From an uncultured Clostridia bacterium (GTDB lineage Bacteria; Bacillota; Clostridia; TANB77; CAG-508), in NCBI GenBank assembly GCA_947632525.1, contig CANRPQ010000001.1:1-40385 (forward strand): a stretch of 40,385 bases of DNA, written 5' to 3'. The position numbers were made by a program, and so were the translations under genes. The first letter of the stretch is position 1; every line of letters begins with the position of its first letter. The notes beneath the pieces were generated by a model that was given only the letters and a program-made list of their open reading frames with translations, ran no database searches and was not told where the DNA came from. This document shows, piece after piece, positions 19,733 through 20,039 of this stretch.

Positions 19733-20039
19733 TTATTTTTTTATTTATTTTTTATATATTTATAATTTAAAATTATTTTTTATTTAATTTTAAAATTTAA
19801 TTTATTTTATTTTTTATTTTTAATTTTATTTAATTATTTTTATTTTTATTTTATTTATTTATTTTTATTTTATTTTATTTATTTTTATTTTATTTTAATT
19901 ATTTTTATTTTTTATTTTTTTATTTAATTATTTTTTATTATTAAATTATTTTTTAATATTTATTTTTATTATTTATTTTTATTATTTATTTTTTAATTAT
20001 TAATTTAATTATTTATTATTAATATAAAAATTTTATTTA
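19733..20039. repeat. 307-bp tract with no G or C, made of short degenerate tandem repeats
   Basis: The last C is at 19732 and the next G at 20040. A 20-mer ATTTTTATTTTATTTTATTT at 19861-19880 is repeated 19/20 at 19881-19900 and loosely at 19901-19920. A 13-mer TATTTTTATTATT is duplicated exactly at 19961-19973 and 19974-19986. Confidence 0.9.

Follow-up and report, generated by a model that had tools for sequence, protein, structure and literature searches.

What can a run of 307 bp that consists of nothing but A and T be doing between two genes of a bacterial chromosome, and how did it get there? The question is raised by the genome of an uncultured Clostridia bacterium (GTDB lineage Bacteria; Bacillota; Clostridia; TANB77; CAG-508), of which a stretch of 40,385 nucleotides was analyzed (GenBank assembly GCA_947632525.1, contig CANRPQ010000001.1, positions 1 to 40,385); this whole stretch is referred to as the window. 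The tract lies in a non-coding gap of 1213 bp (19250 to 20462) between the gene of a VirD4/TraG-type coupling protein (T4CP) and a yhaO-like gene, and the flanking genes are all located on the minus strand. It is probably a slippage-driven, hypervariable, non-coding AT-only filler, i.e., cryptically simple sequence, which is possibly transcribed and occupies a dispensable spacer inflated in this lineage. As such, it exemplifies a habit seen across the family.

Composition and length variation of the tract

Direct reading bore out the run reported in a preliminary description of this DNA: the C at position 19732 is followed by A and T alone (19733 to 20039) until the G at 20040; the plus strand of the run counts 219 T and 88 A (71% T). 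The same description regarded the tract as built from 20-nt and 13-nt tandem units. The local repeats were quoted correctly, i.e., the 20-mer ATTTTTATTTTATTTTATTT at 19861 to 19880 with a second copy (19 of 20 matches) at 19881 to 19900, and the 13-mer TATTTTTATTATT in exact duplicate at 19961 to 19986, but regular repeats are limited to two or three copies of the former and two of the latter, and neither autocorrelation of the minority base nor the spectrum revealed a dominant period along the whole tract. Tandem Repeats Finder returned many competing, overlapping periods (5, 15, 20, 27, 40, 44, and 61) with 64 to 77% matches. Because of these competing periods and the missing autocorrelation peak, the tract is to be regarded as irregular low-complexity DNA and not as an array; the 5-mers TTATT and TATTT occur 41 and 36 times, respectively, within the 307 bp.

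In the home assembly (1.16 Mb, 110 contigs, 27.9% GC), the second-longest G/C-free run measures 50 bp, runs of at least 40 bp number 21 in all, and no contig ends in AT-only DNA. The expected number of runs such as the one studied here is about 1e-8 genome-wide, even assuming a local GC content of 10%, and chance can therefore not produce it. The claimed excess over background composition is thus confirmed, and comparable tracts are not common within this genome but recur in the genus and the family. Nowhere in the assembly is the duplex less stable than in the tract (nearest-neighbor energy of -176 kcal/mol per 200 steps versus a genome mean of -233, standard deviation of 10.7). Neither a single-strand fold (z of 0.06) nor any cruciform or hairpin potential was found in it. 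It holds no open reading frame: stop-free stretches comprise at most 18 codons on the minus strand and up to 53 on the plus strand, which is non-coding because a start codon is impossible in A/T-only DNA. Rfam matches in the whole window were limited to two tRNAs and the signal recognition particle RNA, with none in the spacer at E values of up to 1. An exact 24-mer of the right flank had no match in the metagenome contigs of the Joint Genome Institute, and literature searches yielded no account of AT-only tracts from genomes of TANB77 or CAG-508.

Exact-protein look-ups located the locus in five further ENA assemblies of the species. About 900 nt of non-coding flank are 100% identical across the assemblies, and all differences are confined to the tract, whose alleles measure 307 bp (window), 234 bp with one C (L163), 215 bp (L164), and 167 bp (L166), while in sample ERZ27249059 the contigs break inside the tract and the T4CP-side piece holds three G/C positions. 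Five samples have yielded five alleles. L163, L164, and L166 are set apart from one another by single indels (19, 48, and 67 nt), at which microhomologies of 2 to 9 nt are present, and the 13-nt unit is present in two copies in the window and in one copy in the other alleles. The T-to-C change and two indels that L163 and L164, from different samples, have in common argue for real alleles and not for a random assembly collapse. The spacer is enlarged in the lineage of the window, and polymorphism at the locus is confined to the tract. AT-only DNA of 167 bp or more is found reproducibly, and the figure of 307 stands for a single allele or a single outcome of assembly, whose exact length is unreliable.

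That the tract as a whole is an assembly artifact, brought about by chimeric or spurious joining of AT-rich reads, is very improbable. DNA of pure AT is poorly covered by Illumina reads, the lengths differ between short-read assemblies, and one sample breaks in the tract, as such an artifact would have it. However, the same flanks are connected in four independent assemblies by AT-only DNA of 167 bp or more, all relatives have the same order of flanking genes, and an internal variant is shared by two samples. The longest exact repeat inside the tract is 24 nt, which lies below the larger k-mers of the usual assemblers and further counts against an artifact. Moreover, the circular genome of a relative from the same family that was closed with HiFi reads (OZ007016.1, G063) contains ten tracts of at least 81 bp, the longest of 169 bp, and the phenomenon is therefore biological. 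In practice, the tract flags a locus at which short-read assemblies of an uncultured lineage are unreliable with respect to both length and contiguity.

Among the roles offered in the preliminary description, a pure slippage product provides the best fit, since the alleles differ by short repeat units, such as the 13-nt unit, and by indels with microhomology. Slippage during replication, together with unequal recombination between motifs of A and T alone, would create the tract and alter its length, a mutational bias towards AT would keep it free of G and C, and selection on its sequence would be weak. As the easiest melting site of the assembly, it may also absorb superhelical stress. The short spacer of other species and the promoter-proximal position of the conserved elements argue that it is dispensable: among 62 species with the same gene order, the T4CP-yhaO spacer has a median length of 205 bp (interquartile range, 151 to 339), and the yhaO promoter and a LexA-like box, both conserved in short-spacer species, lie within 80 nt of the start codon. 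We accordingly regard the tract itself as filler and assign no specific function to it.

The window is not the only place where this spacer has grown. It measures 1161 bp in the congener G004, with AT-rich repeats of 8, 9, and 44 nt, and 793 bp in G011, where AT-only blocks of 121 and 105 bp flank a conserved core; spacers of 634 bp and more than 1270 bp, both at 13% GC, were found in further species, and the contigs of several relatives stop in AT-only DNA directly past the T4CP gene. The AT motifs of the inflated spacers (G004, G011, L076, L079, and L080) differ by species. To judge from these motifs, the inflated spacers would represent independent local expansions or rapid turnover, with most species keeping the spacer short.

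AT-only tracts and a bipartite module in the family

A census with the pattern of one G/C followed by 100 A/T positions detected about 58 tracts of at least 100 bp in 22 of 51 congeneric genomes, with up to 9 per genome. These counts are lower bounds, since AT-only tracts run into contig ends and thereby break short-read assemblies; in the genome G003, for example, two of them are cut off at at least 390 bp (L160, G003:C18:1-390) and at least 215 bp (L161, G003:C19:2254-2468). On the family level, tracts of at least 100 bp are present in 31 of 53 genomes from 13 genera, compared with 2 of 98 genomes from four sister families (Fisher's exact test, P = 1e-15), and the two exceptions are pure (TA)n or (ATATT)n microsatellites. 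The other tracts, each of private sequence, are located between ordinary genes (ypeB/sleB, gyrA, a DnaC-like gene, and that of a CoA-enzyme activase), and some tracts of relatives reside within open reading frames, where their A/T content is balanced. Of 16 tracts between co-directional genes, 12 have an A-rich sense strand (P = 0.04), a tendency to which the tract of the window conforms. Two further places deserve mention. A 230-bp AT-only tract with 81% T separates a sleB-like gene (Hydrolase_2) from ypeB, which form one operon in other Firmicutes (L153 4730-4959, G017:C6). A gene-poor AT "desert" of about 6 kb with 15% GC, located in a 1.5-Mb genome (L152, G046:C2:43500-52500), comprises ten AT-only runs of 65 to 130 bp and almost no open reading frames of at least 80 codons.

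The tract of the window lies between two copies of a bipartite module, the only ones in the home genome (Table 1). As read on the minus strand, they extend from CGGATAAA to GTAAACATAA (19490-19428) and from CGGATAAA to GGTTACATAA (20250-20188), and the two tract flanks exhibit a weak colinear similarity. The module in general, CGGA(A)TAAA-N45-AGTATACATAA, hardly varies in length (62 to 64 nt) and has a variable, purine-rich interior; 20 of 51 congeners together contain about 30 copies, and the HiFi genome, which belongs to another genus, has the module as well. A search with nhmmer using the 522-bp repeat unit of G011 had no match in the window's own genome, and the module is detectable by its two short motifs only. 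In at least eight species, one copy is located 170 to 225 nt upstream of the yhaO start. The regulatory region of yhaO holds a previously undescribed bipartite motif of fixed length.

On the purine strand, a sigma-A-type promoter with at least 10 of 12 matches follows 60 to 160 nt past the second motif (motif B) in 17 of 34 modules, compared with 20 of 102 controls from three placements (P = 0.0014), and the -35 box of these promoters is nearly always TTGAC-. The promoter past module copy 1 is that of yhaO, and past copy 2 only ATGACA-16-AAAAAT is present. A plus-strand promoter into the tract, as seen in the window, is not general to the modules (comparable site in 5 of 34). In our reading, the regulatory region of yhaO, comprising module and promoter, would have been duplicated in tandem, with AT filler behind the upstream copy at the place where yhaO would be. 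Tandem arrangements recur elsewhere: in addition to the two copies of the window at 760 bp, there are four at about 755 bp in G050, three at 522 bp in G011, two at 854 bp in G042, and several at about 730 bp in the HiFi genome. The latter carries two arrays of the 730-bp unit around a small gene cluster (L178, G063:C1:138500-148500), and each unit combines near-identical AT-only segments (87 and 131 to 169 bp) with a 63-nt module copy (TTATGTTTACT...AATCCG). Single modules are mostly without a long tract nearby, and most tracts are without a module.

Three identities of the module were considered and rejected. RNAalifold detected no consensus fold in 31 copies on either strand, and neither the spacer nor the G011 array matched Rfam at E values of up to 1, which disposes of a structured RNA. 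A small hydrophobic peptide (MYT...) was dismissed on account of stops in 12, 12, and 12 of 31 copies across the three frames and the lack of a Shine-Dalgarno sequence. Finally, TTATGTATACT in motif B differs at one position in eleven from what we take to be the XerD arm of the Bacillus subtilis dif site; there is no XerC arm or central region, and the likeness is presumably a coincidence.

Several observations weigh against a mere filler. The short-read assemblies of the species have a coverage of 7 to 9x, and their length differences could partly be assembly error. Sampled contigs exhibit 26 to 29% GC in two of the four sister families versus 25 to 28% in the family of the window, yet these sister families are without tracts; since they are equally AT-rich, base composition alone is insufficient to explain the restriction to one family. 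The loss of mismatch repair as a cause of the family trait is ruled out by the presence of MutL in 149 of 151 genomes, including that of the window. The family restriction thus points to a lineage-specific mutational mechanism or use, and its sharpness, despite a similar composition and intact MutL, is the aspect of general interest. In the tandem arrays of four or five genomes, including the HiFi genome, an AT-only tract is located 150 to 380 nt downstream of the module and is A-rich on the purine strand, and in some arrays perfect TTGACA-16-TATAAT promoters are aimed at the tract. This layout looks more organized than random filler. As a side observation, MutL open frames have mostly about 700 to 850 amino acids in the window's family (range, 394 to 917) and about 610 to 760 in the sister families.

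These points lead to a rather unlikely alternative, in which the tract is the working part of a repeated unit of bipartite motif, sigma-A promoter, and AT-only tract, which makes an A-rich or U-rich non-coding RNA or provides a length-variable spacer tuning an SOS-type yhaO/yhaN operon, and which is selected as a class while its sequence drifts. The fixed length of the module and its wide distribution, its position upstream of yhaO, the enriched promoter, the arrays with a period of 522 to 854 bp and an A-rich tract past each module (window, G011, G050, G042, and G063), and the confinement of the trait to one family are all in line with such a unit. However, most modules lack a long AT tract, most tracts of the family lie between ordinary genes where no module was found, in the window itself, the promoter aimed at the tract is weak (9 of 12 matches), the tract is different in every sample, and the module has neither a consensus RNA fold nor a coding signal. 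We therefore doubt that the family restriction together with the module-promoter-tract arrays amounts to a functional unit. The more far-reaching version, according to which the family carries an undescribed intergenic unit whose AT-only tract is transcribed into an A-rich RNA, which forms arrays of about 520 to 850 bp, of which one copy is wired to yhaO/yhaN, and whose tract length serves as a population-level tuning or topological device, is decidedly unlikely.

The T4CP-yhaO locus

The preliminary description had placed the tract correctly between the terminator of the T4CP operon and the promoter of the yhaO-like gene, and the features of the locus are compiled in Table 1. The region upstream of yhaO includes a dyad, GAACATTAGTTT, in which we presume a resemblance to the LexA (Cheo) box of Firmicutes; it is a candidate only, and AAC-N4-GTT-like sequences occur at the equivalent place in relatives. 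Such a box suggests that yhaO/yhaN might be under SOS control. The motif ATATGACAA (TTGTCATAT on the plus strand) precedes the control region of yhaO in two tandem copies and recurs twice around module copy 2. The adjacent yhaN-like gene has a GC content of 12 to 15% over positions 16500 to 17500 and contains a 42-bp AT-only run at 17067 to 17108, and its homologue in the HiFi genome comprises an AT-only stretch of 130 bp within the open frame (L179 2003-2132). Coding DNA in the CAG-508 family can likewise be almost G/C-free.

Table 1. Positions of the tract, the modules, and the neighboring genes and signals in the window
Feature	Position	Strand	Remarks
yhaO-like metallophosphoesterase (SbcD-like)	18167..19249	-	yhaN-like ATPase next, 16109-18067
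yhaO promoter TTGACT-17-TAAAAT	19276..19304	-	Kept in relatives with short spacers
GAACATTAGTTT	19314..19325	.	Form GAAC-N4-GTTT; directly upstream of the yhaO -35 box
TTGTCATATTGTCATA	19338..19353	.	Repeated at 20379-20394 (15/16); half copy at ~20100-20110; spacing fits the 760-bp unit
Module copy 1	19428..19490	-	CGGATAAA-N45-AGTAAACATAA; 63 nt; 124 nt upstream of the yhaO -35 box
Promoter-like site TTGACT-18-TATAAT	19619..19648	+	11/12 matches; aimed into the T-rich tract from the other side
G/C-free tract	19733..20039	.	Plus strand T-rich, A-rich on the strand of the flanking genes; irregular low-complexity (T3-7 A1-2)n; hypervariable between samples
Weak promoter-like site ATGACA-16-AAAAAT	20078..20105	-	9/12 matches; downstream of module copy 2, aimed into the tract
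Module copy 2	20188..20250	-	Same bipartite motif; 63 nt; exactly 760 bp from copy 1; otherwise strongly diverged
Intrinsic terminator of the T4CP operon	20389..20433	-	Hairpin 20396-20433, 15-bp stem followed by a U-run; -20.1 kcal/mol, z of -5.44
T4CP gene (VirD4/TraG type)	20463..22506	-	Stop at 20463; Pfam T4SS-DNA_transf, 1e-70; one 680-aa frame if CGGT at 22041-22044 is one step

The vicinity of a coupling protein gene had led to the proposal that the tract is a DNA-unwinding element or the relic origin (oriV/oriT) of a decayed conjugative element that brought the T4CP, an explanation that is extremely improbable in the light of the following observations, even though the tract adjoins a VirD4/TraG-type gene and is the least stable duplex of the assembly. 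Among 80 loci from related species that were examined, 62 have T4CP and yhaO next to each other, in most cases separated by a short spacer that lacks a tract, and the order of a DnaJ-like gene, two small proteins, T4CP, spacer, yhaO, and yhaN is kept in nine congeners. The arrangement is therefore a core chromosomal locus and not a decaying island; the related public records are metagenome-assembled genomes from the gut of humans, rabbits, and mice. The T4CP gene is not decayed either. With genetic code table 11, it is split within the Walker A motif, which contains one surplus base (VLVVG-CGGT-TCT-GGT-TCT-GGT-AAA); at this site, the window reads GGT CGGT TCT GGT TCT GGT AAA and one relative is in frame with GGT GGT TCT GGT TCT GGT AAA. 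CGGA is present at the same codon in two other congeners, and counting the four bases of the window as one step results in a continuous protein. This CGGN has the appearance of a conserved +1 or quadruplet site and not of decay. The local annotation is thereby corrected: the coupling-protein locus is not "orphan, decayed" but belongs to the conserved core, and its CGGN step is conserved as well.

The signals of an origin are missing as well. A search of the assembly for relaxases of the families PF03432 and PF02486, which covered these two families alone, was negative, the operon partners of T4CP are without a Pfam family, and no nic-type inverted repeats were found; together with the core status of the locus, this led us to reject an oriT. 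With respect to an unwinding element of oriC or oriV, there are no DnaA boxes (TTATCCACA-like, one mismatch allowed) between 17684 and 25907 and their window-wide count is at chance level, the direct repeats include no iterons, there is no adjacent initiator gene (dnaA is located on contig C23 and not on that of the window), and the cumulative GC skew runs monotonically across the region without a turn. This candidate was likewise rejected.

A structural or topological role would be that of a landing pad for nucleoid proteins or a supercoil sink, which would shield the T4CP operon against the yhaO promoter and its regulation by DNA damage. The extreme AT content and low duplex stability, the location between terminator and promoter, and the A-richness of co-directional tracts on the sense strand are compatible with this role. 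However, most species manage with a spacer of 65 to 350 bp that lacks a tract, its length and even its freedom from G and C vary by sample, and no AT-binding nucleoid protein was identified. The tract is not helically phased, with autocorrelations of 0.00 at lag 10 and 0.04 at lag 11 and no spectral peak near 10.5; intrinsic curvature is hence not to be expected, and the bent-DNA site of the preliminary description is unsupported because of the lacking 10- to 11-bp phasing. Phased curved DNA was accordingly discarded as a candidate, and a structural or topological role of the tract as a whole, insulation included, is improbable.

Comparison with known systems

A slippage-derived filler still has to be distinguished from several known types of AT-rich or length-variable DNA. 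The unwinding elements of replication origins resemble the tract in being AT-rich and locally the least stable duplex, but they are accompanied by initiator boxes or an initiator gene and a skew switch, and typical 13-mer-type elements are far shorter. Long G/C-free intergenic stretches are found under AT-biased mutation in insect endosymbionts and Plasmodium. In contrast, the genome of the window has 28% GC and ordinary intergenic DNA elsewhere, and the equally AT-rich sister families are devoid of such tracts.

Bacterial variable-number tandem repeats, mycobacterial interspersed repetitive units, and simple-sequence contingency loci are length polymorphic between near-identical strains. The tract shares this polymorphism, including the copy number of its 13-nt unit, but unlike the phase-variable contingency loci, it has no regular unit and lies outside of any promoter spacer or reading frame. 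It begins 429 nt upstream of the yhaO -35 box (19304), and an on/off switch is therefore not apparent.

For the short satellites of Methanococcus voltae, with an AT content of 90 to 100%, local errors of duplication have been named as the source (Subirana and Messeguer 2019, PMC6749651). Like these AT-rich prokaryotic satellites, the tract is non-coding, intergenic, nearly pure A/T, lineage-specific, and thought to have arisen locally by duplication errors, and its copy number varies between samples. In contrast to their recognizable arrays of short units, it has no dominant unit and no head-to-tail repetition along its whole length; it is, furthermore, far longer than any other such run in its genome and, in the arrays of relatives, tied to a bipartite module.

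Along with these satellites, the closest likeness is to cryptically simple sequence, slippage-generated low-complexity DNA that was reportedly described by Tautz and colleagues in 1986, mainly in eukaryotes. In both cases, a few short motifs are over-represented without a period, and indels accumulate rapidly at short repeats. What sets the tract of the window apart from cryptically simple sequence as described is the use of only two bases out of four throughout its 307 bp, and its occurrence in a bacterial genome of 1.2 Mb.

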